DNA of 52,603 nt from a virus (IMGVR_UViG_3300021475_000018:1-52603); one strand, 5' to 3'; shown: positions 6,771 to 52,149, numbered from the stretch's first letter. The notes: generated from the sequence alone by a model not told the origin. Numbers and translations are program-made.

Positions 6771-7091
6771 GTGTCGTTATTTCCGTGGCTCAATCAACCA
6801 CCGCCAACGCTCAAAGAGTTGACGCCACGGGAGCGCATGCTCGAACGGCTCAAATTCGGAGTACCGCTGGAGCTTGTGGCCCGTGCGGCCGGACTTCGTC
6901 CGGAAACTTTGAAGGAAGACCCGGAAGTTGACAAGGCGATGGCCGAAGGCGAGATTTTGTTGTTCGAACGCGCGCGAGACAGCAGCGTGACGGGTATCGT
7001 ACGGGCCGCTATGCGTCGGGAAGCGGAGAGCTGGCTGCCCAAGGCGGAACCCAGTTCGGCGGGTTCGCTGGAGGATTTGCTGCGGGACTAG
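6771..7091 (+). CDS. HTH protein, possible terminase small subunit
   Basis: GVPLELVARAAGLRPETL HTH-like segment followed by helices; size fits TerS. It is not adjacent to TerL. Confidence 0.4.
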   Translation: MSLFPWLNQPPPTLKELTPRERMLERLKFGVPLELVARAAGLRPETLKEDPEVDKAMAEGEILLFERARDSSVTGIVRAAMRREAESWLPKAEPSSAGSLEDLLRD

Positions 7092-7203
7092 CTGAATAAT
7101 GTTTGTGCGGCTTAAAGTCCGCATTCATCCATGGCGCGCGGTTATTCGCGTCCCGTTTCAAACATGCCGGGATACCCGCGTCATCTTCCCAGGGTAGCGC
7201 CAT
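7009..7203 (-). CDS. small Pro/Trp-rich peptide (three PW motifs; DDAGIPACLKR)
   Basis: GGAG RBS upstream; its 3' end overlaps the 6771-7091 gene in antisense. Confidence 0.55.
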   Translation of the reverse strand: MALPWEDDAGIPACLKRDANNRAPWMNADFKPHKHYSASPAANPPANPPNWVPPWAASSPLPDA

Positions 7204-7260
7204 TTCAGTGCTCCGTATTTGTGTGCTGCCGACAATCGTACGCCGGCAGCACGAGTATTT

Positions 7261-7407
7261 TTAGCGCATATACACAATGCGTTGCGGTTTTGCCGTTACC
7301 GCATTTTGCCAACCGACGATATCAGATGCCGTCAAGATTACGAGCCCCAGCACGACAACGGCGCCGAAACTTAGCAACATTCCTACAAGCAAGCGTGCGA
7401 GCACCAT
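7261..7407 (-). CDS. 48-aa single-pass membrane protein (not in the ORF track)
   Basis: AAGGAGG RBS; MVLARLLVGMLLSFGAVVVLGLVILTASDIVGWQNAVTAKPQRIVYMR. Confidence 0.65.
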   Translation of the reverse strand: MVLARLLVGMLLSFGAVVVLGLVILTASDIVGWQNAVTAKPQRIVYMR

Positions 7408-7424
7408 TTCAACCTCCTTTGCGT

Positions 7425-7620
7425 GTTGTACACATTTTTCTGTACAAACGTAGTATGTACAGCGCTGTACACATAGTTCCGTACAAGGAACATGTCAAGC
7501 CGCTACATTTAGACCCCCGTGTCATACATCTACAAAATGTAGTACAAGCCCCTTGATGTATGACAATTTGGCGTGTTATCGGTGATTTGGTGAAGATTTC
7601 CAACCGGGCCCATAGGAGGC
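7425..7620. promoter_or_regulatory. divergent promoter region with TGTACA cluster and TGTATGACA inverted repeat
   Basis: Leftward TTGACA at 7493-7498; TGTACA at 7427, 7441, 7456, 7466; 11-bp inverted repeat 7520-7530/7555-7565. Confidence 0.65.
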
Positions 7621-7626
7621 TATACC

Positions 7627-8364
7627 GTGCAAATTGTTAACCAGCCCATCTTGGGCGGCGGTTTCCGCCACTACTCAGGTTTGCTGCCTGCCATCAACGC
7701 AGCCGGCGACCCCTTCCACGCTTCTGTGAGGCTTTTCCACGTCCCGGCTGCGGACACCAACGCGATGTTCCGCGGAGATATCGCCGTTTCGTCATCGGGC
7801 GCGATTGGCACCCAAGGCGGTGCGGACAATCCGGCCAACATCGGACCGCCGGCCGCAACGCCGGCAACGACCGTCATCGGCAACGGCGGCGGCTCAGGTC
7901 TAGGCAACCAATCGATTGCGCCCAATATCACGCGCTGGGTGCCCGCCGATACTACGTCGCTGATTGTCGGTGCCATCGTCGGCTTCGGTCCGATCACGCT
8001 GTACATGGCCAAGAACGGCTTCCAGTACAAGCCGGCGAGTTTCGAAGCATGGTTCTGGGTGGAGACGGACCCGGCCATGGAATTTACCGCAACCGTACCC
8101 ACCGTGCCCGGCACTGCATTCAATTTGCAGCTCATGGATGGCATCGACGTGAAAGCCAACGCCGGCTTTCAATCGACGCGCTTCGGTATTTCGGGCCTGT
8201 CGCTGGACCCTGCCACCATCGCGACCACGGCTACGCTGCCCCTGCGCATCTTGGGTTCGGGCGAGCAGATCGGCAACGACCCAACTTCGCCGGGTTTCGT
8301 TGCCAAGGTGACTTTCAACAAAAGCCGCCACGCATTCGCCAACGGCGCGTTCGTCGCCGACTAA
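7627..8364 (+). CDS. putative capsid decoration/minor head protein
   Basis: GGAGG RBS; beta-rich protein resembling those that usually precede this type of major capsid gene (recognised from memory). Confidence 0.5.
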   Translation: MQIVNQPILGGGFRHYSGLLPAINAAGDPFHASVRLFHVPAADTNAMFRGDIAVSSSGAIGTQGGADNPANIGPPAATPATTVIGNGGGSGLGNQSIAPNITRWVPADTTSLIVGAIVGFGPITLYMAKNGFQYKPASFEAWFWVETDPAMEFTATVPTVPGTAFNLQLMDGIDVKANAGFQSTRFGISGLSLDPATIATTATLPLRILGSGEQIGNDPTSPGFVAKVTFNKSRHAFANGAFVAD

Positions 8365-8404
8365 CAGCCCGTCAACCGTAACGTTGAAACGAGGATACAG
8401 GACA

Positions 8405-8983
8405 ATGAAGGAATTTCTTTCCAAGCTGAAGGGCGCAGCGATCGCGGTTGCGGCCGTCGTTGCTTTGATGCTGCCGACCGGTGGCGCTTTGGCCCAGACC
8501 ATCACCGCGCTCCCAAACAACGTCATCATCAACAGCGTTCTGGACATGGGCAACGGCCCCATGGAACTGAAGGTGCTGCAAGGCAACGGGTGGTTGTTCA
8601 CTGCGCAGGGTGCCGGCGTCGGCTCCACGTCGGGTTCGTCCACCACGTTGACGCTCACGGCGACCGCCGCTGCGGACCCGCCATGTGTAGGTTGCGAAAT
8701 TTCCGGCGCCGGCATCACGTCGGGCACCACCGTGGCAGCGTTCAACGGCACCACCACCATCACGCTCTCCGCGGCGATGACGGTTGCGGCGTCCACCCCG
8801 CTTGCATGGGGAATGGCCTGCCCGACCTTCGCAGCGCTGTCCGGCCTGCCCCCGGTACCAAATGTCGGATTGCCGGCTGCCGGCGGCGGTGACTTGCCGC
8901 TGTACACGCAGGCACGGGTCTGTCTTTTGGCGCAGAACGGTCCCGGCCTTACCGTGCTGCCCTTCCCGATCGGCGCGCACTAG
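8405..8983 (+). CDS. signal-peptide-bearing Thr/Gly-rich protein
   Basis: MKEFLSKLKG-hydrophobic-ALA|Q; 4 Cys; ISGAGITSGTTV...TITLS adhesin/fibre-like repeat. Confidence 0.7.
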   Translation: MKEFLSKLKGAAIAVAAVVALMLPTGGALAQTITALPNNVIINSVLDMGNGPMELKVLQGNGWLFTAQGAGVGSTSGSSTTLTLTATAAADPPCVGCEISGAGITSGTTVAAFNGTTTITLSAAMTVAASTPLAWGMACPTFAALSGLPPVPNVGLPAAGGGDLPLYTQARVCLLAQNGPGLTVLPFPIGAH

Positions 8984-12178: not shown

Positions 12179-12469
12179 ATGCAAATCTATAACCGGGGAA
12201 CGACAGTGCATCACCACCTTGACACCCTTAACTGGCCGGTGCTGGGCGTGAACGCCGCTGTTTTACCGTGGTTGAACGATCTGTGGACTTACGTTCCGGC
12301 TCCCACAGCGATCTACATGATTGTGTCGGCGGCCTTTATGTTGTTCCAGATGTCTGATAAGCTGGGCTTGCTGCACCGTTTCAAGCGGCACGCACCGGAG
12401 ACGGCAGAAGATCGGCGGGCAACTTCCATCATCAAGGAGCTGCCGGATGTCCCACAACAGGAGCACTGA
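12179..12469 (+). CDS. small membrane protein (holin-like?)
   Basis: Two hydrophobic segments and a charged C-terminus. Confidence 0.45.
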   Translation: MQIYNRGTTVHHHLDTLNWPVLGVNAAVLPWLNDLWTYVPAPTAIYMIVSAAFMLFQMSDKLGLLHRFKRHAPETAEDRRATSIIKELPDVPQQEH

Positions 12470-17944: not shown

Positions 17945-17945
17945 T

Positions 17946-20275: not shown

Positions 20276-21856
20276 GTGACCGTCTACCCCTGGGAGCAGC
20301 CTCCGTCTTTTTATCCGTGGCAGCAACCGCAACCTACGGAAGCGGAGCGCAAAGCGGCGATGCGGGCCAAGCTCCGCGATTTTGATTTCTATCGAGAGCG
20401 GTTCCTGCGCATCCGTCCGCGTGCCGGCGGCGAGCGCATCCCGTTCATTTTGAACAACGCCCAGCGCGTGTTGCATGCGCGTTTGGAAGAAGAGAAGAAG
20501 CGGTTCGGCATGATACGCGCGCTCGTGCCCAAGGCGCGGCGTATGGGCGTAAGCACGTATATTGGTGGACGCAACTTCCATCAAATCGGAACCATGTTCG
20601 GTCGGCGTGCGCAAGTGGTGGCGCACCGCGGCGACAGTGCAGCTAACCTGCATCGTGAAATCAAGGAGTTTGCCAACAGCTTGCCGGGCGCCGTACAGCC
20701 GTCGATTGGTGCCACCAACTCTTATGAAGTGATCTTTGACAAGCTCAAATCGCTTTACAAGGTGGCGTCGGCCGAAGGCGGCGATATTGGCCGTTCCGAC
20801 GATTTCCATAACCTGCATTTGTCGGAAGCCGCTTTCTTTGATAACACGGAAGACCTTTCGTCAGGTTTGCTGCAAACCGTACAAGACTTGCCCGGTACGG
20901 AGATTATAGAAGAGAGCACCGGCAACGGCCAGTCCGGCATGTTTTATAATCAATGCGAGGAAGCGGCGCGGCAGGGCAACAAAGGTCCGTGGCGCATCCA
21001 CTTCTTGCCGTGGCCCGTCATGCCAGAATATCGCCAAACTGTGCCGATCGGCTGGAAAGCACCGCAGGACTTTGAAGAGTACGCGCGCATGCATGGCGTG
21101 GACCGTGAACAACTGCATTGGTTCTGGACCAAGAACTATACGATAGCCGTCATGAACGGCGGGCAACCGGAGAAAATTCACCGGCTCACGCGTCAGGAGT
21201 ATCCGGCCATCTATAGCGAATGTTTCATGGCTGACAGTACGCTTGATTTCTTCCCGGCTTCCACCGTATCCGCGGCAATGGTGCGCAAACCGAACCCGTC
21301 CGCTGGGGCGCTGAAGCTGCTTTGCGTGGACCCAGCCGGTGACGGGCAGGACAAGCCTTTTGTCTGCGATCGGCAAGGCTCCGCGATCGGCGCTAAGGTT
21401 TGGGGCGAGCTGACAAGTCGGGACTACAACGTGCAAGCTGACTGGCTTGTGGCTACGTTTAAACGCTTCGATATGGATGCCATCCTTATTGACGTGACTG
21501 GCACTGGCAAAGGCCTGCTTGATGCCGTGCGGCTCCGCATGCGCGCGTACGGTCCCGAAAAAGTGGTTGCGGTCAACTTTGCCTGGGGTGCTTTGAACGA
21601 TACGTTGTACGGCAACCGACGTGCGGAGCTTCATGATAAATTTCAACGTTTCTTGCAAAGTGACGTGTACATACCGAATGACAAGATGTTGCAGGATGAA
21701 TGCGCCGCTTATAAATGGGGTGTGGGTGGTTGCCGCCGTGACGAAAAAGCGCGGCTGTTCATGACCCCAAAAGAGAAAATTAAAAAGGAGCTGAAGCCTA
21801 CGCGCTCGCCCGACCGTTTGGACGCCTGCGTTGTTTCGATGGCAATGGAGCTTTGA
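20276..21856 (+). CDS. terL: terminase large subunit
   Basis: LNNAQ, PKARRMGVST (Walker A), LHLSEAAF (Walker B), EESTGNG coupling motif; nuclease motifs VDPAGDG and RSPDRLDA. Confidence 0.93.
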   Translation: MTVYPWEQPPSFYPWQQPQPTEAERKAAMRAKLRDFDFYRERFLRIRPRAGGERIPFILNNAQRVLHARLEEEKKRFGMIRALVPKARRMGVSTYIGGRNFHQIGTMFGRRAQVVAHRGDSAANLHREIKEFANSLPGAVQPSIGATNSYEVIFDKLKSLYKVASAEGGDIGRSDDFHNLHLSEAAFFDNTEDLSSGLLQTVQDLPGTEIIEESTGNGQSGMFYNQCEEAARQGNKGPWRIHFLPWPVMPEYRQTVPIGWKAPQDFEEYARMHGVDREQLHWFWTKNYTIAVMNGGQPEKIHRLTRQEYPAIYSECFMADSTLDFFPASTVSAAMVRKPNPSAGALKLLCVDPAGDGQDKPFVCDRQGSAIGAKVWGELTSRDYNVQADWLVATFKRFDMDAILIDVTGTGKGLLDAVRLRMRAYGPEKVVAVNFAWGALNDTLYGNRRAELHDKFQRFLQSDVYIPNDKMLQDECAAYKWGVGGCRRDEKARLFMTPKEKIKKELKPTRSPDRLDACVVSMAMEL

Positions 21857-24208: not shown

Positions 24209-24877
24209 CTACTTCTTCCCTTTGTTGTTCTGATGCGTGCGGTAGTGGCTCGCGAGCGCATCGGTGATGAATTTTTCGCGAACCTCCTTCTTGGCGCCTT
24301 CCGGTACGAACCGATCGGCGGAACGCTTGACTTCCTTCTGGATGTCGGCCGGCGCGTCCGCCAGCTTCGTCCACGGACCGGACTTCGCACGGGTGGCGGA
24401 ACCGCGGCTCAGATCGCCGTCTTTCGGGCCGTCCGTGGCGCGCTGCTTGCTGGGCGCGGGTTTGCTCTCCGCGGCCCCTTCGCCCTCGCCTTCTTCGGCT
24501 GCTTCGCCCTCGTCTTCTTCGGCTGCTTCGCTTGCCGCGGTAGCGGGTTTAAATTCTTCTTCCACCGCTTTGATAACCGCATCGGCCATCGCTTCGGCGC
24601 TGGCAAACTTCTTGGGGTTCATGGTTTTGGCAAACTCGTTTGCCTTGGCGGACTTCTTGGGGTCCACGCCGAGCCACGGCGCTTTCGCTTCCGCGGCAAG
24701 CCACACGTCGTTGTTGGTGAAGGCCACGGCTGGTTTCGGCGCCGTGGCAACGTCAAGCTTCGCGATGTCGTCGGCAAGCTTCCGAGCGGCTGCGGTATCG
24801 CCGGCAGTCACCGCGGCGTCAAGTTGTGACTGCAATCCGTTGCGCGCTTGATCGCGCATCATCATATTCAAATCCAT
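24209..24877 (-). CDS. putative scaffolding protein
   Basis: Helical and charged; W...PWLG motif; acidic linker; located in the portal operon. Confidence 0.55.
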   Translation of the reverse strand: MDLNMMMRDQARNGLQSQLDAAVTAGDTAAARKLADDIAKLDVATAPKPAVAFTNNDVWLAAEAKAPWLGVDPKKSAKANEFAKTMNPKKFASAEAMADAVIKAVEEEFKPATAASEAAEEDEGEAAEEGEGEGAAESKPAPSKQRATDGPKDGDLSRGSATRAKSGPWTKLADAPADIQKEVKRSADRFVPEGAKKEVREKFITDALASHYRTHQNNKGKK

Positions 24878-27460: not shown

Positions 27461-27567
27461 GGCGTTACCGTACACTAATTTGACGAAATCCGCAGCATCG
27501 GCTATTTTGTACCAATTCGCACGCGCCGGCCTGCAACGCCGGGGAACCATTGAAAGGGGTTATTCGC

Positions 27568-28500
27568 ATGCAGGTTATCGACCGCTCGCTGCAATCATCG
27601 CAGTACTGGCCCGGGCTGTTCGCGCTGTTCGGCATGGATTACGAACGCCTGTCACCGATCTACAAGCAGTTCTACGACGCCAAGCCCTCGGAAAAGGCGT
27701 TCGAAGAATTTATGACGGAGCGCGCTGGCCTGGGCCTCGCCGTACAGCAACCGGAATTGGAGCCGGTGCAGTTCGACGTTCCCAACGAAGGCTACCGCAC
27801 CCAGGTCACCCACGCGTCGTACGGGCTCGCCGTGGCGATCTCGCGCGAAGCCAAAGACGACAACCTGTACGAGGATGTCGGCGGCCGAATGATGAAAGAG
27901 CTGGCGTTTTCGGCGCGGCAGACGGAAGAGTACATAGCGCATGCTCCGTTGCAGGTCGCGTTCGATGCCGTCAATGGCCTGCGTGCGGATGGCGTGCCGG
28001 TTTGCTCGCCATCGCATCCGACCGCTGTTGGTCTCCAGTCCAACCAGCTCATTTCCGCCAACGCGTCGGAATTGGCATTCGAGAATGCGGTTATCCAGAT
28101 CGCGTATACTCGCAACGGCCGCGGCTTCGTCGTCAACGTCCTGCCCAAGCGCGTCATCACGTCGCCGGAAAACGGTCCGGAAATCCGGCGTATCCTGGGT
28201 TCGCCTTTGCAGTGGAATGCACAGACGAACAATATCAACGTGCTGCGTTCGACCGGCGCACTGCCGGAAGTTATCGAGACGCCCTACTTGGTCGATAAGG
28301 ACAACTACTTCGTCCAGACTTCCGAGCAGGACAAAGACAACGGGCAGGGCTTCACTTTCTGGGAACGTTCGTCGCTGGAAACTCGTGAAGATAGCAACTG
28401 GAGCAATCAGGCGTCCCTGATCGCGATCTGGTTCCGCTGTGCGGCTTCCGTCGTGGACTTCCGCACCGTGTACGGTTCGGCCGGTTCCGACAATCTGTAA
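27568..28500 (+). CDS. major capsid protein
   Basis: PGLFALFG..Y, SEKAFEE, YGLAVAISREA.DDNLY, ADGVPVCSPSHP; strongly biased codons. Confidence 0.88.
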   Translation: MQVIDRSLQSSQYWPGLFALFGMDYERLSPIYKQFYDAKPSEKAFEEFMTERAGLGLAVQQPELEPVQFDVPNEGYRTQVTHASYGLAVAISREAKDDNLYEDVGGRMMKELAFSARQTEEYIAHAPLQVAFDAVNGLRADGVPVCSPSHPTAVGLQSNQLISANASELAFENAVIQIAYTRNGRGFVVNVLPKRVITSPENGPEIRRILGSPLQWNAQTNNINVLRSTGALPEVIETPYLVDKDNYFVQTSEQDKDNGQGFTFWERSSLETREDSNWSNQASLIAIWFRCAASVVDFRTVYGSAGSDNL

Positions 28501-28596
28501 GGGGTTGACGCCCGCTTTGGAGTAGCGTACGTAAGCAGTGTGCGGTGGCATCTTGCTATCGCTGCCCTCCTTGGGCGTTTCCTCCCTATTGACTTG

Positions 28597-28630
28597 GCGG
28601 CCCCGCTGTACGACGCGGGGCCGTTCTTTC
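28597..28630. terminator. terminator hairpin between convergent genes
   Basis: GCGGCCCCGC-TGTACGAC-GCGGGGCCGT-TCTTT. Confidence 0.6.
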
Positions 28631-28631
28631 A

Positions 28632-29531
28632 TCAGGCGGCCTTCGCCATCGGTGGCAGCCAATCGGGCGGCGCCGGCAGTTCCTCCCCAGGAGCCAAACG
28701 CGCGTTAGCCGGCCGGCGAAAGTCAATCACGGACAGCAACGCCCGCCCCGCCTCTTCTGCCTTCGGCCTGGGGCCTACCGAGCGCGCGGCCATGTCGATA
28801 CGCGGCCAACCCAGGTCAAGCAACCGGCGGGCGTGGTCACGAAACGCAGGGTAGTTGTGCACGAGCCACACAAAGCCAAGCGTCGCGTGTTCCGTTACCA
28901 GCGCATTCGGCGGGGCCAGCGTGGCGATCATTTCCAACGCGGTCACAAGCTCGCCCGGCGGTACAGGGGTTGCTCGTTTGGCGTAGCTTGCGCTGCCGTG
29001 ACCGTACAGCGATTTCAACGCGCCGACGCAAGCAAGTTTCGGCACGGTAAATTCGTCGCGTTGGTTGTTGGCGTCCACAACGGCCAAGCCGGCGTTCTGC
29101 ACGAGCCGGTTGAGCTGCACGGCGCTTTCGTCACCAGCCGCAACTTCCGCCATGAACAACATGGTTTGCGGCACCTTCCGCATTTTGGTGTTGCGCGAAA
29201 GAAAAATCTCGATTTCGCGCTTGCGGTCATGCACGTTGTAAATATCGCACGGAACGAACAGACGCGCGGACGCTTTCGCGCCTTCCCAGCGGTGCCGCCC
29301 GTCCACGACAAACAGCGCACCGTTTGCGCGCCGTACGACCATGAGCCGGCCGAACAGTGTCAAGTCGAAAGTCTTACCGATTTCCTTTACCAGCCGTGGG
29401 TTGCGCGGCTTCATTGCTTGATACGTCGTATCGACATTCAACAGTCCAATCGGAACCTCGGTTGGTTCCGGTTTTTCTTCGATGATAACGACGGGTTTCT
29501 GTTCCCAAGGGAACATCTTCGCGGTACTCAT
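28632..29531 (-). CDS. ParB/Srx-like N-terminal domain protein (DUF6551-like)
   Basis: LNVDTTYQ...FD..LFG.L.V.RR.NG.LFVVDGRHR; AAAGGAG RBS; own TTGACA promoter near 29600. Confidence 0.75.
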   Translation of the reverse strand: MSTAKMFPWEQKPVVIIEEKPEPTEVPIGLLNVDTTYQAMKPRNPRLVKEIGKTFDLTLFGRLMVVRRANGALFVVDGRHRWEGAKASARLFVPCDIYNVHDRKREIEIFLSRNTKMRKVPQTMLFMAEVAAGDESAVQLNRLVQNAGLAVVDANNQRDEFTVPKLACVGALKSLYGHGSASYAKRATPVPPGELVTALEMIATLAPPNALVTEHATLGFVWLVHNYPAFRDHARRLLDLGWPRIDMAARSVGPRPKAEEAGRALLSVIDFRRPANARLAPGEELPAPPDWLPPMAKAA

Positions 29532-37053: not shown

Positions 37054-39020
37054 TCATTTGCGCATCCTATCCGCTTCGTACCCCTCGCAATCCAGCGGCA
37101 GCCCGGCAGTCCACGGCCGCGGCCGGCGCATAATTTCGCGCATCTGCTCTGAGCGCTGCTTGGCAATGTGAGCCGGCGCCAGCGAGAGTATGCTATCATA
37201 GACATCAAGGACCAACACAACATCCGGCAGCTCGTTCTCTATGTCAGCTTCCGCCGCGGTCACCAAGTCACGCGTACAGCTTGACAGAAGATTTCGAGCA
37301 GCGAACCGCCGAAAGCTTTCTGTCGCATCATGGCACCAAACTTCGCCCGGAAAAACTGCATTTCTCCGGTTGGCGAAATGTGTGCAGAGTAGTGCGGTAC
37401 CGCGCGACCGGACGGCAACAACATCCACACCGTACCATGACTGTCTTTTTGGAACGCGATTTTATTGTTGACTGGGAAGATACGGCCGTGCTGTTCATAG
37501 ATCGCAAATTTGAAGGCATCGGCCAAGTCGTACCAAAGCCGTACGAGTAGCGGGTTGGCTTGGCGATAACCGTTGATATCGATCATGGCTTTTTGGTCGG
37601 TTATCTCGTGACGCTTCAAACCGTTTTCCGCGGCCGTACGGATAAGGAACGCGAGATATGTACGCCAACCGAGCTGATAGTTGCCGCCAAGCGTGACGCT
37701 CTTGAATGTCTGCCGTTCTTTTGGATGCGTGGATTTGGTAGCGGTTTCTGGCAGGTTCAGACACTTCCGAGCGTTGTACATATACAAATCGCTGCCCGGC
37801 GTCGCAATGATATTTAAACGTTCCGTGTCGCCAGCGAGCCAAAGCGCGAAACGCAATTCCGCCTGGGAAGCATCGTTATCGCATACCATCCAGCCTGTAG
37901 GTGCCACGATGCAACCGCGAAGGCAGTCTGTCAGGGCGCTATTGCCTAGCGACGTATGACCCTGCTTCAGCCGGTCAATAAGCTGGTCTATCGTGGCGCG
38001 GCCTTCCTTGCCGTCGTACTTGCCGGACGGGCGCGCAATGTTGAACATATTCGCGCCTTCGGATGTGCCGCGCCCCGATCGCGCGCCGAAGTACCGTGTA
38101 GCGTCTTTGTAAAAACCGTTGACGTGCCGGTCTAGCAACGCTTGCGCTTTAAGCGGCGCGGAGCCACCCTCCGCCTGCAACAGCTCCAGAACAATCCGTA
38201 CGTCTGGGTGCAGGTTTTCGTCAGTAAGTTTTTCCGCGATAATGTGCTTCTGCGTATTCTCCAGTCCGGCAGCGCGGTTACCGCTATTGGCCCAATCGAG
38301 TATCCGCTGCCGCTGCGAAAGCTTGGTCACCGCGTTGTTGGTGATTTCCATAAGCTTCGCGGTGCTCTCCTGCTCGATTTCTTGCCGACGCATCGCAATC
38401 GCGGTTGCCAGATTAATATCGATCGGGAGCCCGATTTCGTTTTTACGCCATGTGCGCTCAAAGATCAGACGTTCGGCCGGTGACAGCGGAGGCAAGCGTG
38501 CGTCAACATCCATGAGGCATTCAACGTCGCGCAAGTTGTACGCGAGCAGCTTGACGAACGTTTCGATTTTTTCGTGGAACGTGCCGTCTTTCTGCGGCTT
38601 GCACGTCAGCGTCACGAGCGCGCGGCCTTGCGGGTCTTTGCCCCGGATACCAAGCGCCATACATAATTCATCAAGGCCGCCCGGGAACGCGATAGCTTGG
38701 GCGCGGCCCATTGTGCAATCAATCTTGCTCAAATCGATTTGTACGAACGGATTTTGCCGCTTAATCACGTTCACGTCGAAATTGGCGTGATGCGCAACGA
38801 AGCGCCGGCATTGCCGGATATCTTCGTAAAAGTCCGCCATCGTATGGGAGCCGATAGACGGATGTAATGTGCATGCAGTTTTGTACACACCGCGGAACCA
38901 CCAACACGCCGTGGTTATCTGGGTGGATGGGCATGCTGCATAGCGTCGCGCGCCCGCCGTCTTCAGGTTCGTACGGCTGCGTGTTTCTACATCGGCGAAT
39001 AAGTCGTCAAGCTGCGGCAC
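37054..39020 (-). CDS. polA: DNA polymerase family A (3'-5' exo + pol), split by a -1 frameshift at ~37280
   Basis: DVETRS, AHHANFD, YN..DV; motif A DASQAELR; motif B KSVTLGGNY. Motif C (VYDS) and PWTAGLPL lie in the second frame. Confidence 0.88.
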
Positions 39021-39143
39021 GTAGCACGCTTTCAAAGTTGAGAGAGCGGGTAAAGCCCTTCGTCTGCCAATTCGATGCACCGCGCCGGGAAACCGGAAAA
39101 ATCGACGCGTTGACCATTCCCGCTACGTCCGGTTGACACTCTC

Positions 39144-39181: not shown

Positions 39182-40096
39182 TCAGCGCGAAGGCCAAGCA
39201 CCGCCCTGCGTAGCGGCGCCTGGGAAGGTTTGCTGCGGCTGGTTAGAAGGGAATGTCGCATTCCCATTTGGCGCGCCGGGCATCCCACCATGGGCCTGGG
39301 CACCCCCGAAAGCAGGCCCCGCCGTATTCTGAGGGGCAAACCCCCCTTGCGGGCCTTGATGTGGGTTCCCAGGGAAACCGTTGCCGTTCTGCGGTCCCTG
39401 GGGTGCCGTAAAACCCCCATGCTGCGGAGCCCCGCCGAAGCCCTGGGGCGCGGTCCCAAAGCCTCCGTTCTGCGGACCGCCAAACCCACCCGGCGACGGA
39501 TTGAAGCCCGCCGGCCGGTAGCCCTGGGCCTGGGCAGCCTGCATCAGCTCGGCTCCGCTGATCGAGTTGCCGATAGCGATTTCCTCGCCGGGCGCCGTGA
39601 ACACCACGTTGTTGATGTAGAGCTTGATTGCACGGGCATTCTGCGAGTTGACCGCCACCGCTCCGCCGACGATGCAGAAATCGCCGGGCTTCACGATGTT
39701 GCCGCGGGCCTGGAGCGGCACGAGCGTGGCGCCCTGGGACAGTTCGACTTTGATCGCGTCACCGGAATTACCGGAAAACATCCACTGGCCGCGCGCCCAA
39801 TCAGCCGGCGGCTGCTGGGGGTCTTGCGGCATGTCACCGTCACGAATGGGCCACGTCACTTGCTCGTAACCGAGCCCGCCCATGGTCGCGGCGTGAATTT
39901 TCTGCATCGCACCCCAAAGGTTCTGGAAGACGGGCTCCATAGACCAATGCGACTGCGTTTTCGGCACGAGGAAACCGCCGAGCCAATTTGGCTTCGTTGT
40001 CTGGCCTCTGAAGTCGGTGCTGGGTTGCCAAAGATTTTTCATTCCGTATACTCGCGCGCCGAAACACATAAAGTTTTCGTACTGCTTTTTCGCCAT
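39182..40096 (-). CDS. single-stranded DNA-binding protein (DUF2815/T7 gp2.5-like) with long G/P/Q tail
   Basis: WPIRDGD, I.PGD, IKLYINNV.F...GEEI; upstream of polA. Confidence 0.7.
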   Translation of the reverse strand: MAKKQYENFMCFGARVYGMKNLWQPSTDFRGQTTKPNWLGGFLVPKTQSHWSMEPVFQNLWGAMQKIHAATMGGLGYEQVTWPIRDGDMPQDPQQPPADWARGQWMFSGNSGDAIKVELSQGATLVPLQARGNIVKPGDFCIVGGAVAVNSQNARAIKLYINNVVFTAPGEEIAIGNSISGAELMQAAQAQGYRPAGFNPSPGGFGGPQNGGFGTAPQGFGGAPQHGGFTAPQGPQNGNGFPGNPHQGPQGGFAPQNTAGPAFGGAQAHGGMPGAPNGNATFPSNQPQQTFPGAATQGGAWPSR

Positions 40097-44985: not shown

Positions 44986-45189
44986 TTACTCCCAATTCGC
45001 GGCAAGGCAGGTAACCGCGGTCATGCCAGTCAGGGCAAGGCGGGCTTCGGCGTAGCCGGAACGCATCTGCAAGCCCAGGTAATACGAATAGGGCTTGGTG
45101 ACGCGGCCGTTGGCCTTTGACCATGCAAAGTCTTCCTTGGCGCGGGCGTGGGCTTCGGTCATGATCTTGGAAAGAAGGGGCTTGAACAT
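44986..45189 (-). CDS. hypothetical protein
   Basis: Preceded by start cassette copy 3. Confidence 0.65.
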   Translation of the reverse strand: MFKPLLSKIMTEAHARAKEDFAWSKANGRVTKPYSYYLGLQMRSGYAEARLALTGMTAVTCLAANWE

Positions 45190-45191
45190 CT

Positions 45192-45249
45192 TCGCTCTCC
45201 AGCGGGTTTGTGTGTACATATCTGTACAGAAGTCCGCTTAACCCGTCAA
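45192..45249 (-). promoter_or_regulatory. promoter plus CCGCTGGAGAGCGA cassette (copy 3)
   Basis: TTGACG-17-TACAGA; motif 45192-45205. Confidence 0.75.
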
Positions 45250-45273: not shown

Positions 45274-45582
45274 TTAATGCAGGGCGTCCCAAAATCCGAC
45301 GATTAGGCCCTCGTCGTCTTGCAAGAAACCGCCGCGCTCCAGCCGAACCCATTCATTCCAGCTCGGATAGGACGTGTATATACGGCGCCATGGGCTATCC
45401 GTACTCTCGATTACCGCCAGATTTGGCGTCTCAAGAGGTTCAGTTTGCTGGCAAATGTCCACGCAGGCCAGATAAGCGCCCCGACCGGGCGGGCGAGTAT
45501 GGATGGCACGTATCTCGTTGGCATATGCCGGGGGCGCTAGAGGGCTGCCGGCGACGAATGAGAAAGGCCAATAGCGTGTCAT
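45274..45582 (-). CDS. hypothetical protein
   Basis: GGAGG RBS; ATGA coupling. Confidence 0.5.
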   Translation of the reverse strand: MTRYWPFSFVAGSPLAPPAYANEIRAIHTRPPGRGAYLACVDICQQTEPLETPNLAVIESTDSPWRRIYTSYPSWNEWVRLERGGFLQDDEGLIVGFWDALH

Positions 45583-45917
45583 GGCAGTACCTCCAAACCT
45601 AGTTCGTGCGCCGTCTCCCAAACCTGCTTCACAAGCTCGCGTACGGACGCAATGTAGGGCGTGTTTGGCTGGGGCATGCCGACGTCCTGAAATTCGAGCG
45701 TGCTGCCGTCCGTGAACTTGCACTCTCCCCGTGGGATGATTTGACCCCTGGGCGTGTTCACAAGCCGTTGCAGCGCCGGATGCTTGCTATGGACCAGTAC
45801 GCCCGTGAGCTGTACGGCAATGGCAAAATCACGTTGCAGGGCCGCCACCTTGTCTTCAGTGGTCGGCTGCGCCGGTACGGGCGGCTCCCAGGGGTATCGT
45901 TGGATTTCGTTGCTCAT
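45579..45917 (-). CDS. hypothetical protein with N-terminal YPWE
   Basis: MSNEIQRYPWEPP...; coupled ORF. Confidence 0.6.
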   Translation of the reverse strand: MSNEIQRYPWEPPVPAQPTTEDKVAALQRDFAIAVQLTGVLVHSKHPALQRLVNTPRGQIIPRGECKFTDGSTLEFQDVGMPQPNTPYIASVRELVKQVWETAHELGLEVLP

Positions 45918-46067
45918 TCTTTTTTTACCCACTGCTGGCAGCTGTCACTTCCGTATTTGACCGTGCCGAGTTTCAAACACGGCGCTTTCTGCTTTCCAGT
46001 TTCGTCGGCAGCTCCAGCGCTGCCGTACCACATGTTGCAGCGTGAACACGTACGGAGCGGAAGCGGA

Positions 46068-46340
46068 TCAATCAGCATTTCTGTCATCCTCGATTGGAGC
46101 GCATTCATCGCAACGCAGCTCTCCGCCGTCGCTGTCTTGGCCGGTTTCGTCCGTACCGCACCACCAACCGCATCCGACGCACTCAAATACGAGTTGGTCA
46201 AGCGTGGCGCAAAACGTTGCGTTATCGACGTACTCCGCCGGCAGTTCAAGTGTTTCTAAAACTTCAGACAGCGATATAGTGGTATCGCGAATTTCATCCG
46301 CAACTAGTTCTGCGGCTTCCACTGGTCCGATCGTTCCCAT
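46068..46340 (-). CDS. Zn-finger hypothetical protein
   Basis: CVGCGWW...CDEC. Confidence 0.6.
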   Translation of the reverse strand: MGTIGPVEAAELVADEIRDTTISLSEVLETLELPAEYVDNATFCATLDQLVFECVGCGWWCGTDETGQDSDGGELRCDECAPIEDDRNAD

Positions 46341-46599
46341 GGTAACGCCTTTCGTAAGTACGTTGCATCTTCAGGATAGATTATCGCGCCTAAATCTTCG
46401 TTATAGGCGTCTGTCCAAACCACGGCAATAGTTCCGGCTTCAACGACAGTGACGGTTCCGCGGCTAGCGCCGGAACAGACAACATCGCCCACGGCATACT
46501 TTGGAGGCTCAGATGCGTGGCTCCAAGGATACACCGCTTTCCGTCCGCTGTCGTCTTGCCGCATTTGCAAATCCCGTCCCAGTCTTCCCAGGGGAGCAT
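46304..46599 (-). CDS. hypothetical protein(s); two overlapping frames, possibly one frameshifted gene
   Basis: MLPWEDW... starts 2 nt after the upstream stop; the -1 frame carries YPWS...LPWE. Confidence 0.45.
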
Positions 46600-46601: not shown

Positions 46602-46781
46602 TTACCCTTTTTCAATGATGCGTCGCGCCGCCATCATCACTGTGGCTTCTTCCGTTATGGAAGGGCGGCGCTGTGTTGCTGCATACGTGCTCCAGTACAG
46701 CAACACGAATTTGTAGCGTTCGGCGCATGTCGAGCATTCGCACCGATGATCGTTGCCGTCTGGCGTGACTAATTTTGCCAT
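46602..46781 (-). CDS. 59-aa hypothetical protein (not in the ORF track)
   Basis: GGAG RBS; MAKLVTPDGNDHRCECSTC...IEKG. Confidence 0.55.
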   Translation of the reverse strand: MAKLVTPDGNDHRCECSTCAERYKFVLLYWSTYAATQRRPSITEEATVMMAARRIIEKG

Positions 46782-48832
46782 GGGTAGCTCTCCAGCTTGG
46801 TTGTCGGTGTTTGAACGGTCCAGTTAACCGTAAGAGGCTGTTGTACGTTTCCGGCGGGCGAATAAACCGCATAAAAAGGGCATCCGCGCATCGTACGGAA
46901 GTGTCCCGAATTTAGCAAGCTCTGCATGCCCTCTTTTTCAAATAATTTTAGGGCAGCATCCTTGCTGATGACGAAGGCCGGCACGGAACCGTGTACGGAT
47001 GCACCCAGTTCGGCGGCGACACTATCAAAGGGAACCATGTTGCCGGCGCGAAGCGCGTCCATTCCGCCGCTAGTGACGCCGGGCAGCATCGCGCCGAGCC
47101 GTATCATGGCACTCTGTTCGCGTTGCTGCGGTGTTGTAATGATTTCGCGTTTAAACACATTCACCGTTGTTGCACGCCCCTTGCTGTCGTTGCCGTAGTG
47201 TTCGGAAATAATTCTCCCGGTGTAGCTCTTTGCCTTTGGCGCGCCGCGCGCTTTACCGCAGTCGATTGACACCGTGTCTTGCCGGCCAGCGGTGACGCGA
47301 TACATGAAACCGCTATTGCCGGCCTTGGCGCCGTTGCCTTTCTGCCAAGCATCCTCATTGCCGAGCGGCAAATGGTCCGTAACAACCATCGCTGCGCCCG
47401 TACGAAATGCGACATTTTTCAAAATGAACATCGCCTTTAAAACGCTTTCGGTATCGTTGTCGGCAAAGCAAAGCCCCGACGACGCCCAGGTATCCAGCAC
47501 GAGCAAGTCAACGCGCATGCCCATGGCGGCCATCGCAGCAACTTGGCCTAGGCAATCTTGTTCGAAGGAGCCGGAATTGACGCGCGGTATTAGATGGAAG
47601 CGTGAAGCTAGCTCGTTGCCGTTCGGTTCCTGCCGGATAAGATGCCTTACGCGTCGTTCTGTGCCGTAATCGTCTTCAGCGGCAACCCATAAGACATGAC
47701 CGTCCGTACGTTCCACTTCCGCGTCAAGCCATGCTCGGCAAGTGAGATAAGACACGCAAAGGTCGCTAACGACAGATGATTTTCCGGCTCCGCTGTGTCC
47801 GGTAAAGAAGTGAACTTCGCTACACAAAACGCGTTGATATAGTAGCCATGGTAACTCATTTGTGCTGTCCTCCAGTTTCAGCTCAAAGCCCGTACGAGCC
47901 TGCAACGTCGGCGCCGTTTGTCCGTCATGCAAACCTTGAAGAAACGTACGGCGCGACATGATAGCTTGCATTATCAGATTGCCGCGCAACACCGGCAACT
48001 GATCATGGCGCATGATTTCTTCGCCCAGGACGCGCCCGCCGTGACCTTCGGATAACGAGTGACCCGCGCTGGTTATCGCAGTTTCGATTTCCTCTCGTGT
48101 GCACATGCCGTTCTGCTCGGCGAACTTCAGCACCCCGACAAGCGAAAAAATCGTGGACCCGCGGCCCTCCGTACGGCCCATCAAGTCTTGCTTGAGCAGT
48201 CCTAAGTATCGTTTAGTGGCGTCGCGGCCGGCTTGCCATTCATCTTGCGTTCTAGGAATAGCTTCTGAAAGTTCGTCAGCTCCAGCGGTTTCGTGCTCGG
48301 CTCCGAACCGCAGGGACGTACCAGCCTGACGCGGCACTTCTGCAAGAATATGCTGAAGCTGTGCTGTTGTAATTTGCGGCCACTCTGCATCCCAATTCTC
48401 CCATTCGTACGGCTGTCCGGTGTCTTTGTGCGGGCCGAAGGCGACGAATTGTCCGCCCATCAATTGGAGCTTATCGCCGTCCGGAAATGTGAAAGTGCGA
48501 CCCTGTACGGGTGCGTCACGCAGAAAGAACGGTATCAGGAAACGCGGCCGTCTTCCCCATCGGATAGGAGTGTTCGGGCCGAGTATAGTACGAAACGCCT
48601 GCAAGAGACGCCCAGACATTTCGGGGTTTGATACGTCACAGTCAAAAGCGGTAAGGCCGTTGTCTCCGCAGCGGAGGCCCACGCTGCCGGCGCCTGGGTG
48701 GGGGATTGGTGATGTCCAGACATTCCAGCCGTCTCCTATGGGAGCTTTAGAACCCCTTGCGATAGCTAGCGGAAACAGTCCGCGCTGTACGGCTTGCGTC
48801 CAGAAGTCCTGAATGGTAAGAGGTAAAGGCAA
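46769..48832 (-). CDS. primase-polymerase fused to RepA/AAA_25 helicase
   Basis: SKAP...GW, VGLRCG..L.AFDCD, QFVAFG.H.DTG.PY.W; GHSGAGKS, AAED, LLVLDT, DH. Confidence 0.85.
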   Translation of the reverse strand: MPLPLTIQDFWTQAVQRGLFPLAIARGSKAPIGDGWNVWTSPIPHPGAGSVGLRCGDNGLTAFDCDVSNPEMSGRLLQAFRTILGPNTPIRWGRRPRFLIPFFLRDAPVQGRTFTFPDGDKLQLMGGQFVAFGPHKDTGQPYEWENWDAEWPQITTAQLQHILAEVPRQAGTSLRFGAEHETAGADELSEAIPRTQDEWQAGRDATKRYLGLLKQDLMGRTEGRGSTIFSLVGVLKFAEQNGMCTREEIETAITSAGHSLSEGHGGRVLGEEIMRHDQLPVLRGNLIMQAIMSRRTFLQGLHDGQTAPTLQARTGFELKLEDSTNELPWLLYQRVLCSEVHFFTGHSGAGKSSVVSDLCVSYLTCRAWLDAEVERTDGHVLWVAAEDDYGTERRVRHLIRQEPNGNELASRFHLIPRVNSGSFEQDCLGQVAAMAAMGMRVDLLVLDTWASSGLCFADNDTESVLKAMFILKNVAFRTGAAMVVTDHLPLGNEDAWQKGNGAKAGNSGFMYRVTAGRQDTVSIDCGKARGAPKAKSYTGRIISEHYGNDSKGRATTVNVFKREIITTPQQREQSAMIRLGAMLPGVTSGGMDALRAGNMVPFDSVAAELGASVHGSVPAFVISKDAALKLFEKEGMQSLLNSGHFRTMRGCPFYAVYSPAGNVQQPLTVNWTVQTPTTKLESYPWQN

Positions 48833-48909: not shown

Positions 48910-49098
48910 TCAGAAATCAGCGTGGTTGAAGATCGCGCGGCGCATCGCCATAAAGCCCTTTTGCAAATCGGTTTTGGCGATTGCGAGCCAACGCTTGTCA
49001 ACGTTGGGCTGGGTTTCAAGGTGCGATATCAGGTTCGCCAGCGCTTCGGCGTGCGGTCCCATGAGTGAAGCGTTTTCTTCCGGACTGTAGTTCGGCAT
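48910..49098 (-). CDS. acb2: Acb2-like cyclic-nucleotide sponge (anti-CBASS)
   Basis: C-terminus RWLAIAKTDLQKGFMAMRRAIFNHADF closely resembles the Acb2 C-terminal helix as I recall it ([27 protein letters not shown]); AAGGAG RBS. Confidence 0.7.
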   Translation of the reverse strand: MPNYSPEENASLMGPHAEALANLISHLETQPNVDKRWLAIAKTDLQKGFMAMRRAIFNHADF

Positions 49099-49131: not shown

Positions 49132-49656
49132 TTACGACGATTGCCACGGATAAGTCAAATTGCTTTCCATGGTATTTTGTACCGTTTCGCAGCCTATGGC
49201 GCGCATGGCCGCCGGCAACTCGTATTGCGCGAGCCGGGCTTTCAAGACTTGTACTTCGGCGAACAGTTCGCTGTTGCGTGAGTACAGCCCAGCTAGTTCC
49301 TCCGCCACCGTTGCTTTGTACATACGAAGCTGTTCCAGCTCCGTAGTATCAATGGGTGCTTGCGCCGGGGTGCTCTGTACGGTGGGCCTTGAAGTGCCGC
49401 CGCGGGAGCCCGGGCCGCCATTTTTGCGCTCAGCGCGACAAGTTGGGCAGTTGCGGAGCAGCAAGCCGGCATTCTTGGTAAAGCCTTGCAAGGCTTTCCG
49501 TGAAACGCTCAGGCTGATCTCGCCGCGGCACGTCGCGCATGGTCGGGTTACGCGGTATAGGTGGATGTAATCGCCGTTCCAGTATTTCGTGGTTGCTTCA
49601 CCGCCGCTCCAGCCTGCGGGGAGCGGACCGTCGAAAGGTGCTTGCATGTTGGCCAT
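49132..49656 (-). CDS. Zn-finger/coiled-coil protein ending YPWQSS
   Basis: CATC...CPTC; heptads. Confidence 0.6.
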   Translation of the reverse strand: MANMQAPFDGPLPAGWSGGEATTKYWNGDYIHLYRVTRPCATCRGEISLSVSRKALQGFTKNAGLLLRNCPTCRAERKNGGPGSRGGTSRPTVQSTPAQAPIDTTELEQLRMYKATVAEELAGLYSRNSELFAEVQVLKARLAQYELPAAMRAIGCETVQNTMESNLTYPWQSS

Positions 49657-49790
49657 CAGTTTTTCCGCATGTCTTGAATTTCTTCGGACAGCTTCTTCCA
49701 CGCGTTCACTATGACAGGATATTTTGCGCGCCAGCGTCCAAGCATGTCGCGAAGTTCGTCGTCAGTTGGCAGCCTGCTAGGTAGCTTCAT

Positions 49791-49943
49791 TCAAATGCTC
49801 CCGTCAACAACGCGAAACATGACGTACGCGAATGCGCCCAGCATGGCAAGCAACGCGATTTGCACAGCCGTACGGGCCGCGCGCTCGCCGAATGCAAACG
49901 CTATCAGGCCGACGATGGCGATTAGTCCGATGCCGACGTGCAT
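49791..49943 (-). CDS. small two-TM membrane protein
   Basis: GGAGGAG RBS; two hydrophobic helices. Confidence 0.55.
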   Translation of the reverse strand: MHVGIGLIAIVGLIAFAFGERAARTAVQIALLAMLGAFAYVMFRVVDGSI

Positions 49944-50869: not shown

Positions 50870-51075
50870 GCTACCGCCCGTACAAATGCGAAGCATGCAA
50901 CCACGTCACGCAGCACCCCAGCGTGCTGCGCTCGATACCACGCTGTCCGAAGTGCAGCGGTCCGATGGAAAACATGCAAATCGCAGCAGCGTTCGGCGGG
51001 CACGGTAAACAGGATTATGACCAATATCTGCTAAGTCAACGGCGGGGGCCGATCAATGAGGGCAACACGGATTAA
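50866..51075 (+). CDS. small Zn-ribbon protein
   Basis: YKCEAC...CPKC; ATGA coupling. Confidence 0.6.
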   Translation: MSYRPYKCEACNHVTQHPSVLRSIPRCPKCSGPMENMQIAAAFGGHGKQDYDQYLLSQRRGPINEGNTD

Positions 51076-51158
51076 AGCTTGGCAACACATTTGCGTGATA
51101 TCTCGTGAGTACATGGCCGTTGTTGAGCTGATGCACGCGTACGAATGGGAGAAAGACT

Positions 51159-51332
51159 ATGAACGAACCCACAACCGTCCAGTACGACCGTATCGTACAG
51201 GCGGAAAAGGCGCTTACTGACGGCGGTTTCGTACGGGACAACCGAGCGGCTATCTGGGTTAATGACGCCGGACAGCGCGCCAAGGTGATGCGCGACGAAG
51301 TGACGAAGAAATTTTACGTTTTGCAAAAATAG
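51159..51332 (+). CDS. 57-aa hypothetical protein
   Basis: GGAG RBS; MNEPTTVQYDRIVQAEK... Confidence 0.55.
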   Translation: MNEPTTVQYDRIVQAEKALTDGGFVRDNRAAIWVNDAGQRAKVMRDEVTKKFYVLQK

Positions 51333-51335
51333 GGC

Positions 51336-51391
51336 TTGACGGCGCATTTGTACGGGTCCATATTGCGTACACACAAACCGCTGGAGAGCGA
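51336..51391 (+). promoter_or_regulatory. promoter plus CCGCTGGAGAGCGA cassette (copy 5)
   Basis: TTGACG-17-CATATT; motif 51378-51391; ATG at 51393. Confidence 0.75.
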
Positions 51392-51392
51392 C

Positions 51393-51710
51393 ATGACCAT
51401 CCAAATCAACACCGCTGAAGACGCCACTGCCGCCGCGCTGTTCAATTCGGCTAACGCCGTTGACGAGCTTGGGCTTATCAAGGCGCAGATCGCCGAATTG
51501 GAGCAGAAGGAGAAGGCGCTTACCGAAGCGCTTAAGGCGACCGGCAAGACCAGCTTCGCTGGTACGTTCTATGACTGTTCGATTTCGCATAGCGAGCGTG
51601 CCAACTTCGATATCAAGCAGCTCCGCGCCGATCTGGGCGAAGATGCTTGCGCGCCGTACGTCAAGGCGCCGACCAAGGTCGTGACGCTCAAGCTGACTGC
51701 GAAGAAGTAA
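51393..51710 (+). CDS. conserved phage coiled-coil protein
   Basis: VDELGLIKAQIAEL...; strongly biased codons. Confidence 0.7.
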   Translation: MTIQINTAEDATAAALFNSANAVDELGLIKAQIAELEQKEKALTEALKATGKTSFAGTFYDCSISHSERANFDIKQLRADLGEDACAPYVKAPTKVVTLKLTAKK

Positions 51711-51720
51711 GGGGGCAGCC

Positions 51721-52149
51721 GTGAAACTGACAACCAACACACATTTCGAAGCGGTTAAGGTCGTTACGCCGCAGGAAGCTGTGACATACGTCGTTCTCCA
51801 GCGTGCCAATCGACGTTACGGCAGAGGCATGACCATGGCCAAGAAAGAGCAGATCAACTGGAACAGCTTCACCAAAGCGGAGCTAATCAAAACTATCCGT
51901 ACGTTGCACACGCGGCAGACTAAGTTGCTCAACCGCATTGCGGAGCTGGAGGCTCAAGTTGGTAAATACGATCTGCCCGATATCTCGAAATTGGAGCAGC
52001 CTCGGGACGCCGGCAGCACGGCCGTACAAGGGCCGGCGTCCCACATGGTGGGCGCCGCGCAACGGTATCCCTGGGAAACGCAGCTCGCCAACACCGTGAC
52101 GTACGAGCCCACCAACGGCAAGCCGAACTGTCGGAAGGAAAACGAATGA
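51721..52149 (+). CDS. coiled-coil protein with YPWE (start may be 51829)
   Basis: Heptads; QRYPWETQ. Confidence 0.55.
   Translation: MKLTTNTHFEAVKVVTPQEAVTYVVLQRANRRYGRGMTMAKKEQINWNSFTKAELIKTIRTLHTRQTKLLNRIAELEAQVGKYDLPDISKLEQPRDAGSTAVQGPASHMVGAAQRYPWETQLANTVTYEPTNGKPNCRKENE

Follow-up and report, generated by a model that had tools for sequence, protein, structure and literature searches.

Why should so many proteins of one virus, otherwise unrelated to each other, begin or end with almost the same few residues? This question is raised by IMGVR_UViG_3300021475_000018, a virus record of IMG/VR which was studied here over its whole 52,603 bp (hereafter the window; 58% G+C, rated complete by CheckV). 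A first-pass annotation had drawn attention to a peptide, [YFL]PW[EQ], that recurs on many of its proteins. Judged from the window and its relatives, this peptide, here written as Phi-P-W(-E/Q/D), is probably a short linear docking tag private to the lineage, which one common pocket would most likely read. We infer the binding of the tag, the single reader and the site of action as follows. The tag is placed on flexible, Pro-rich N- or C-terminal tails of otherwise unrelated proteins. A single pocket, on a phage or a host protein, would read these tails, and this reader would gather the carriers at one place, probably the replicating or packaging phage DNA.

Tag sites and their enrichment at protein ends

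Genes were called de novo by a codon-usage model trained on the long open reading frames (ORFs) of the same record, resulting in 84 genes and 15,497 amino acids (aa). Scanned in all six frames for [YFL]PW[EQ], the window returned 11 matches. Ten of them are the exact copies listed by the first-pass annotation (20285, 20312, 29502, 45885, 46585, 46334, 7186, 46775, 49141 and 52066). Its two near-matches, FPWL (6780) and YPWS (46520), are present as well. The sites are as follows (G numbers denote relatives introduced below).

20285..20296, plus strand: YPWE, residues 4-7 of TerL, first copy
20312..20323, plus strand: YPWQ, residues 13-16 of TerL, second copy
6780..6791, plus strand: FPWL, residues 4-7 of a 106-aa helix-turn-helix (HTH)-like protein (6771-7091)
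7186..7197, minus strand: LPWE, residues 3-6 of a 64-aa protein (ORF 7009-7203)
29502..29513, minus strand: FPWE, residues 7-10 of the ParB-like protein
45885..45896, minus strand: YPWE, residues 13-16 of a 117-aa protein (45579-45932)
46585..46596, minus strand: LPWE, residues 2-5 of the zinc-ribbon mini-protein A (46390-46599)
46486..46497, minus strand: MPWA, second tag-like copy, in the tail of protein A; aligned with MPWE/MPWA of relatives soon after GATH
46417..46428, minus strand: LPWF, third tag-like copy, near the C-terminus of protein A; relatives finish with LPWE, IPWK or FPW
46520..46531, minus strand: YPWS, N-terminal part of protein B (46304-46564), which lies over A in another frame; YPWS in G001, LPWS in G009, SPWS in G007
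46334..46345, minus strand: LPWE near the C-terminus of protein B; its ccATGG includes the start codon of gene 46068-46340
46775..46786, minus strand: YPWQ followed by N and stop, C-terminus of the primase-helicase
49141..49152, minus strand: YPWQ followed by SS and stop, C-terminus of a 174-aa protein (49132-49656)
52066..52077, plus strand: YPWE, residues 116-119 of a 142-aa protein (51721-52149); kept only in G001 (AAQRYPWETQLAN)
12263..12274, plus strand: LPWL, residues 29-32 of a 96-aa protein (12179-12469), a possible further tag copy; 4 of 5 family members have an N-terminal Phi-PW

The copy at 52066 is the weakest of the ten. The eleventh match, FPWE at 39366-39377 (minus strand), lies out of frame within the gene of the SSB-like protein (39182-40096) and is probably due to chance.

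Well under one copy had been estimated to arise by chance, and the counts bear this out. Eight of the ten sites are located in called genes, while 0.20 are expected from residue frequencies. For the wider pattern [MYFL]PW[EDQ], 8 sites were observed, whereas 2000 within-protein shuffles gave 0.43 on average and never more than 4. Chance or composition is thereby ruled out as the source. The remaining two sites (7186 and 46334) belong to small ORFs that were missed by the gene caller, yet their homologues are conserved in relatives, which rules out a gene-calling artefact too. The proposed terminal placement also holds: five of the eight copies are found within the first 30 residues and two within the last 15, and the copy at 52066 is 23 residues away from the C-terminus.

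For comparison, 20 relatives with complete or nearly complete genomes (G001-G020) and a pair of outgroup contigs (G021, G022) were subjected to identical gene calling; clade counts refer to 21 genomes. The relatives come from a TerL search of IMG/VR, which gave 24 loci at 71-98% identity. A TerL profile search extended this to about 50 loci, followed by a gap down to 32% identity. A scan of bacteria and archaea with one genome per species revealed no prophage relatives of the clade. The closest TerL of a cultured phage shows 31% identity (among the matches listed, all begin at query residue 15 or later) and the primase has no match at E <= 1e-10 among cultured phages. Hence the clade is uncultured.

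The relatives also changed the definition of the motif. The P-W core of [YFL]PW[EQ] stands, while the residues around it are less restricted than assumed. Met is the commonest Phi in many relatives (e.g. KMPWE-stop or MKMPWE...), so that Phi is M, F, Y or L, and E, Q or D after the Trp is preferred but not obligatory. E is the most frequent residue at this position (73 of 190 terminal sites), with Q (16), A (14), L and S (13 each) and D (11) behind it. Given the frequent Met before Pro and the mixed residue after Trp, we regard Phi-P-W as the core.

Terminal was defined as the first 35 or the last 20 residues, and the clade was counted with the pattern [MYFLWIV]PW. The 21 clade genomes contain 190 terminal copies, 5-13 in each genome, while about 28.0 are expected. 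Internal copies are at expectation (70 versus about 74.3). The two outgroup contigs have no terminal copy at all and their overall PW number is at expectation. C-terminal sites make up 93 of the 190; in 62 of these 93 only 0-3 residues follow the W. At the N-terminus there are 97 sites, and in 42 of them Phi is already the second or third residue.

The same picture emerged from counting all tripeptides, without presetting the motif. Terminal versus internal counts are 52/1 for FPW, 74/3 for MPW, 21/1 for YPW and 90/8 for PWE, spread over 9-21 unrelated families. Among the end-enriched tripeptides found in at least 6 unrelated families, FPW, MPW, YPW, PWE and PWD lead; RWR alone ranks above them. 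A second recurrent peptide is N-R-W-R-A-[KQN]-M, located in the N-terminal region of small proteins from 16 families not linked by BLAST (44986-45219 and 49656-49790 in the window, both minus strand, and many in G002-G020). These proteins have no Pfam match even at E = 1. The peptide may form one strand in a domain for DNA binding that these families share in divergent form (AP2-like), or it may be another tag.

Taken together, the sequence features of Phi-P-W are those of a short linear motif. Such motifs have 3-10 residues with 2-4 of them fixed; here P and W are fixed and Phi is restricted to M/F/Y/L (W/I/V). It is located in flexible segments with free flanks and free spacing, as seen from the flank composition (Pro 2.55x, Glu 2.2x and Lys 2.5x enriched, Gly poor), a linker of 5-30 residues and the tail of a structure model (see below). 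Finally, it originated independently in unrelated proteins. At least one terminal carrier is present in 40 BLAST families, and 19 families have two or more.

Selection on the peptide and conservation in orthologues

Is the tag selected as a peptide or does it merely reflect an underlying nucleic-acid signal? The first-pass annotation had argued for the peptide from synonymous codons at the ten window sites. These indeed vary: Pro is encoded by CCC (5x), CCG (2x), CCA (2x) and CCT (1x), and Phi by TAC/TAT, CTC/CTA/TTA and TTC. The 190 terminal sites of the clade confirm selection on the peptide and not on the DNA, with Pro codons CCG 80, CCT 53, CCA 39 and CCC 18, Glu codons GAG 36 and GAA 37, and Phi encoded by ATG, TAY, TTY or CTN.

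Alternatively, the tag might be a by-product of DNA or translation, be it a DNA site, a ribosome-binding site (RBS) or coupling element at gene junctions, or a codon effect of the start region. The copies cluster at gene ends, two of the window copies hold the ATG of the next gene within ccATGG, the tag of Met-type genomes begins with ATG, and Pro codon use at the sites departs from that of the proteome, all of which would fit. However, all four Pro and both Glu codons are used and Phi changes among ATG, TAY, TTY and CTN. Moreover, spacing is not fixed: the next start may follow a C-terminal copy after as few as 5 or after more than 1000 nucleotides (nt). The in-frame density per 1000 codons is 2.1 for terminal and 0.30 for internal copies, and the off-frame density of 0.36 amounts to only about one sixth of the terminal value. 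In TerL, where copies lie 10-25 codons inside the gene, it is the amino acids that are conserved. A by-product of this kind is thus largely refuted and we consider it highly improbable.

Owing to the variable distance to the next start, an RBS or start-codon coupling was rejected. This includes the ccATGG copies at 46340 and 46781, which the first-pass annotation had suspected to be coupling by-products: their orthologues retain PW with other Pro codons and with free spacing. A motif at the DNA level was also considered. Three QR-[YF]-PWE sites share CAACGR-TWY-CCCTGGGAR, but one of them is out of frame and codons vary freely across the clade, so that this candidate was dismissed.

The tag is kept at the ends of TerL, ParB-like and primase orthologues, whose flanks are variable, and in further families. 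The carrier families with their genes in the window are:

20276-21856, plus strand: TerL (GTG start; phrog_2 match from residue 45), N end; all 37 distinct N-termini have 1-2 PW, 10-25 residues before the conserved RAKLRDFDxYRE
46769-48832, minus strand: primase-helicase (Prim-Pol and AAA_25 domains), C end; 21/21 have PW in the last 20 residues, often in two copies
49132-49656, minus strand: 174-aa family, C end; 23/23 members from 21 genomes
45579-45932, minus strand: 117-aa family, N end; 19/21 genomes and 65/67 database homologues
28632-29531, minus strand: ParB-like family (DUF6551/ParB-like; matches to phrog_1033 and DUF6551), N end; 5/5 with F/L-PWE
6771-7091, plus strand: HTH-like protein, N end; 17/21, e.g. 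MFPWF, MLPWL, MFPWG
46304-46564, minus strand: protein B family; PW at the N end in 6/11 and at the C end in 9/11 members

Two additional TerL loci found in the scan have SMFPWEKP and fall outside the anchor pattern. The HTH-like protein had been labelled TerS-like before; with neither a Pfam nor a PHROG match, this label is not retained.

If the true start codons were located downstream of the N-terminal copies, these would not be part of the protein. Many TerL orthologues start with MFPWE, MLPWE or MNYPWT, the ATG being directly adjacent, and several have an in-frame stop a few codons upstream of the M-Phi-P-W start. Both features place the N-terminal copies inside the predicted TerL protein.

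In the 117-aa family, both untagged database homologues seem to be truncated at the start. The linker between the tag and the folded domain has about 5-30 residues. An AlphaFold2 (AF2) model of the 117-aa protein has a mean predicted local distance difference test score (pLDDT) of 92.5; residues 1-24 lack secondary structure at a pLDDT of 72-77, which is not low. Structure searches with this model returned no clear match, Foldseek reaching an E-value of 0.26 and VIA-align a Z of 3.7 at best, and the ESM Atlas held no usable lead for the 174-aa or a 160-aa protein.

The nearest TerL relatives outside of the clade lack the tag. In a library clustered at 50% identity, 1 of 123 full-length TerL representatives carries it, which is the in-clade one (72% identity). 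TerL proteins at 43%, 41% and 40% identity are without the tag. A single unrelated LPWY match among the representatives is found in a different context.

Change of Phi, the carriers and a possible reader

The genomes differ in their preferred Phi. Tyr is used in G000 and G001, Phe in G007, G011-G015, G018 and G020, and Met in G002, G003, G005, G006, G008-G010, G017 and G019. Each of these styles holds across the TerL, primase, 117-aa and 174-aa families. With Phi classified as aromatic, Met or other and genome labels shuffled within families, the agreement of Phi class between families of one genome is 0.522 as compared to 0.373 +/- 0.017, and none of 2000 label shuffles reached 0.522. According to the TerL tree, the split into aromatic and Met types needs about 4 changes, at least 2 of which are forced by well-supported branches. 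Such agreement is the pattern predicted by a common receptor. The change in step across unrelated proteins therefore points to one reader that would co-evolve with the tag.

To look for a putative reader, the columns of 29 core families were tested one by one for residues that vary with Phi class. One perfectly tracking column each was found in the 117-aa protein (K72), in a 50-aa two-helix membrane protein (49791-49943), in TerL and in the polymerase (the Phi position being excluded). The 208-aa Gly/Gln-rich protein and the SNF2 helicase exhibit a few near-perfect columns. These signals are scattered and weak. No tracking column is present in the SSB-like protein and none among the 442 variable columns of a 662-aa portal candidate.

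What do the carriers have in common? Pfam and PHROGs matches cover only a minority of the 89 window proteins searched. Apart from the proteins listed above, they name a family A DNA polymerase, a DUF2800 exonuclease, an SNF2 helicase, a D12 methyltransferase, a GNAT acetyltransferase, an endolysin and an Acb2/Tad1-hairpin protein, as well as two further proteins:

27550-28500: major capsid protein
39182-40096, minus strand: SSB-like protein, Enc34-type

The recurrent carriers that can be named in this way all act on DNA, namely TerL, the primase-helicase, the DUF6551/ParB-like protein and three kinds of methyltransferases. The latter are of the N6_N4 (C-terminal tag in 5/5 clade members), C5 and Dam types and represent accessory genes which differ from genome to genome. 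Among the best 120 database homologues of the N6_N4 methyltransferase, 16 have a catalytic domain that is followed immediately by a Phi-PW tail (e.g. ...RKRVEPFPWE or ...VWPWS) and 104 have no such tail; the untagged ones include proteins of Pseudomonas, Sinorhizobium and Pseudochrobactrum as well as one of Pseudomonas phage MR14. The tag was thus gained by newly acquired enzymes, and an enzyme entering this lineage acquires it.

These observations can be extended to a more general role, which we regard as possible though doubtful. Phi-P-W would then be a private zip code admitting any enzyme that acts on phage DNA to one platform or compartment. This platform would mark replicating and packaging DNA and would cover the terminase, the primase-helicase, the ParB-like nuclease and each captured methyltransferase, while the reader would co-evolve with the tag, as in the switch from Met to aromatic. 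The reader might be an unrecognised phage protein, or else the phage SSB, whose Gly/Phe/Pro/Gln tail could serve as a condensate scaffold. A small protein joining Phi-PW to a mimic of the FtsZ tail would tie the platform to the division machinery of the host.

The small protein in question is the 64-aa protein at 7009-7203 (minus strand), which consists almost entirely of short motifs: the N-terminal LPWE, then GIPACLKR and finally NWVPPWAASS near the end.

7153..7176, minus strand: GIPACLKR in the 64-aa protein, resembling the FtsZ C-terminal tail DYLDIPAFLRKQAD

Relatives have DDIPGFLKR, LDIPDFLRR, AIPAFLKR, EIPEFLKR or AIPAFLKRDANN at this place, and some of them end in Phi-PWE. Compared by eye with DYLDIPAFLRKQAD, these peptides contain the core of the FtsZ tail, D/E-I-P-x-F-L-R/K-K/R. 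Homologues with an N-terminal Phi-PW[ED] were found in at least 15 of the 21 genomes (by pattern or tblastn), and the gene is always convergent with gene 6771-7091. The FtsZ C-terminal tail DYLDIPAFLRKQAD and its partners are treated in PMC4117426. Based on this resemblance, the 64-aa protein is a possible decoy for, or bridge to, receptors of the FtsZ tail.

The FtsZ-like peptide also bears on a different explanation, in which Phi-P-W is a turnover or chaperone signal. It would act as a terminal degron for a host AAA+ protease or adaptor (ClpXP, ClpAP/ClpS, Lon) and thereby time the abundance of the enzymes. The bulky residues favoured by bacterial terminal degrons overlap the Phi set F/Y/L/M, and the tag is located at extreme N- or C-termini. 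A host reader would agree with the fact that no phage receptor column was found. In addition, the FtsZ tail is among the ligands of ClpX, as stated in PMC4117426. However, there is no evident gain from destroying TerL, the primase or freshly acquired methyltransferases. N-terminal copies are often found 5-25 residues inside and in duplicate, unlike an N-end rule residue. Hence a degron appears unlikely; we also know of no degron class that matches the motif.

Two further small carriers are encoded by genes A (46390-46599) and B (46304-46564), both on the minus strand, which overlap by about 170 nt in different frames. Protein A is a zinc-ribbon mini-protein with a Phi-PW-rich tail and protein B an SH3-like barrel with Phi-PW at both ends. 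A tblastn search detected the A family in every one of the 20 other clade genomes, where the conserved GATH is followed by 1-3 copies of Phi-PW. Both frames are conserved and overlapping in G001, G004, G007, G009, G013, G014 and G016 (tblastn), whereby the folded part of each protein is laid over the loose part of the other.

The tagging of TerL and of a putative packaging partner raises the possibility of a particle-loading signal. The tag would dock on the portal, the scaffold or the core of the procapsid, where it would serve terminase docking and also bring enzymes and small proteins into the head, to be co-injected. Such cargo could plausibly include methyltransferases and early proteins of small size, by analogy with the capsid-targeting sequence of T4 and with the Dar proteins of P1. 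The acidic, scaffold-like 222-aa protein at 24209-24877 (minus strand) contains two internal PW, at KxPWFGVDP and SGPWTKLSDAP, both invariant in 11 of 11 genomes. A replicative primase-helicase would be an odd cargo, though, a prohead protease is absent from the Pfam/PHROG results of the window proteins, and, as mentioned above, none of the variable columns of the portal candidate tracks the Phi class. PDB profile searches with three head-module families found nothing, and the 662-aa candidate was not confirmed as a portal (AF2 pLDDT 34, empty PDB profile search). We therefore rate particle loading as very unlikely.

Several points weigh against a docking tag with one reader as proposed here. 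All genes and starts, in all genomes, rely on our own caller. Of the 40 carrier families, 21 have a single carrier, and about 1.3 terminal copies per genome are expected by chance, so that single-genome carriers may be noise. The Phi concordance test retains shared ancestry, and the independent switches are few. Pro codons are used differently at the sites than in the proteome as a whole (chi-square p = 7e-11, with orthologous sites being non-independent), which may result from a codon bias peculiar to gene ends. The DNA polymerase, the SSB-like protein, the exonuclease and an HNH-like nuclease are without the tag, and the SNF2 helicase carries only an internal, conserved PWQ. Furthermore, the statement that all carriers handle DNA is based on six annotated families, most of the small carriers being functionally unannotated. 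Finally, no phage receptor stands out and no binding partner was found in the association scan of the 29 core families; a host protein is thus equally likely to be the reader.

Some further observations concern other parts of the window. The intergenic region 28538-28632 contains a 51-nt stretch that matches Bradyrhizobium phage ppBeUSDA76-1 at 90.6% identity, in a part of that phage which carries no annotation. It is the sole nucleotide match to any deposited phage and is followed by a terminator-like GC hairpin with a T run. The family A DNA polymerase, which most relatives encode in a single ORF (635-659 aa), is split in the window (37260-39080 and 37054-37266, minus strand), owing to a frameshift or else to a sequencing error. 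The gene next to the tagged 174-aa protein encodes a 62-aa protein (48910-49098, minus strand) with an Acb2/Tad1 hairpin domain (Pfam E = 7e-10), likely a sponge for defence signalling nucleotides. No tRNA genes are present in the window.

Relation to known docking peptides

Shared docking peptides are textbook knowledge for sliding clamps and SSB, and to our knowledge only a handful of phage proteins are known to carry them. In the indexed text covered by a full-text literature search, no published description of such a phage motif was found. The Phi-P-W motif and the clade are new. Here a core of three residues marks about 10 proteins per genome, among them the large terminase and methyltransferases gained by horizontal transfer, throughout an uncultured clade for which at least 21 genomes are complete and some 50 contigs are available. 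Since the Phi position was switched genome-wide more than once, it would provide a natural case of co-evolution of a tag and its reader. The tag offers a bait for the hub which organises phage DNA metabolism as well as a sequence rule to predict orphan genes that work on phage DNA. If private tags are common in phages, they would constitute an overlooked general layer of phage cell biology.

The closest parallels are the following. The T4 capsid-targeting sequence is likewise a short shared terminal peptide that sends unrelated phage proteins to one place. It is exclusively N-terminal and cleaved by the prohead protease, whereas about half of the Phi-P-W sites (93 of 190, as given above) are C-terminal.

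SSB closes at its C-terminal tip with I-P-F behind a run of acidic residues, and T7 gp2.5 and gp4 have acidic tails with a final Phe. As in these tails, Phi-P-W combines a hydrophobic residue, Pro and an aromatic residue at the C-terminal extreme beside acidic residues; several replication proteins share the tail, and the C-terminal tail of the primase-helicase is involved. In contrast to the SSB system, here the clients are tagged and the SSB-like protein has no Phi-PW at its ends. Moreover, the tag also occurs at N-termini, so that a free carboxylate cannot be required. The SSB-like protein (39182-40096, minus strand) itself extends into a tail of about 110 residues with abundant Gly, Pro, Gln and Phe, whose conserved tip is of the form [W/F]-P-x-R (AWPSR at 39185-39199; WPQR, WPLR, FPGR and FPPR in relatives). 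By its sequence, this is probably a second, separate docking tip.

Sliding clamps are bound by client peptides such as the C-termini of gp43, gp33 and gp55 in the case of T4/RB69 gp45, QL[SD]LF in the case of the beta-clamp and the PIP-box, including that of DNMT1, in the case of PCNA. Like Phi-P-W, these peptides have few fixed residues, are placed on flexible ends of many unrelated DNA enzymes and serve a single hub. Methyltransferases are among their clients, and the T4 clients also link to packaging. Unlike the Q-x-x-L-x-F types, the present motif is Phi-P-W followed by an acidic residue, and the clamp consensus QL[SD]LF is not found in it. The clients differ too, comprising TerL, the ParB-like protein and a series of small proteins, with an untagged polymerase. 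A clamp family was not recognised by Pfam/PHROG matches among the 89 window proteins, most of which match nothing. By analogy we propose that the tag works like clamp peptides, PIP-boxes and the tails of T7 gp2.5 and gp4, yet stands outside those families.

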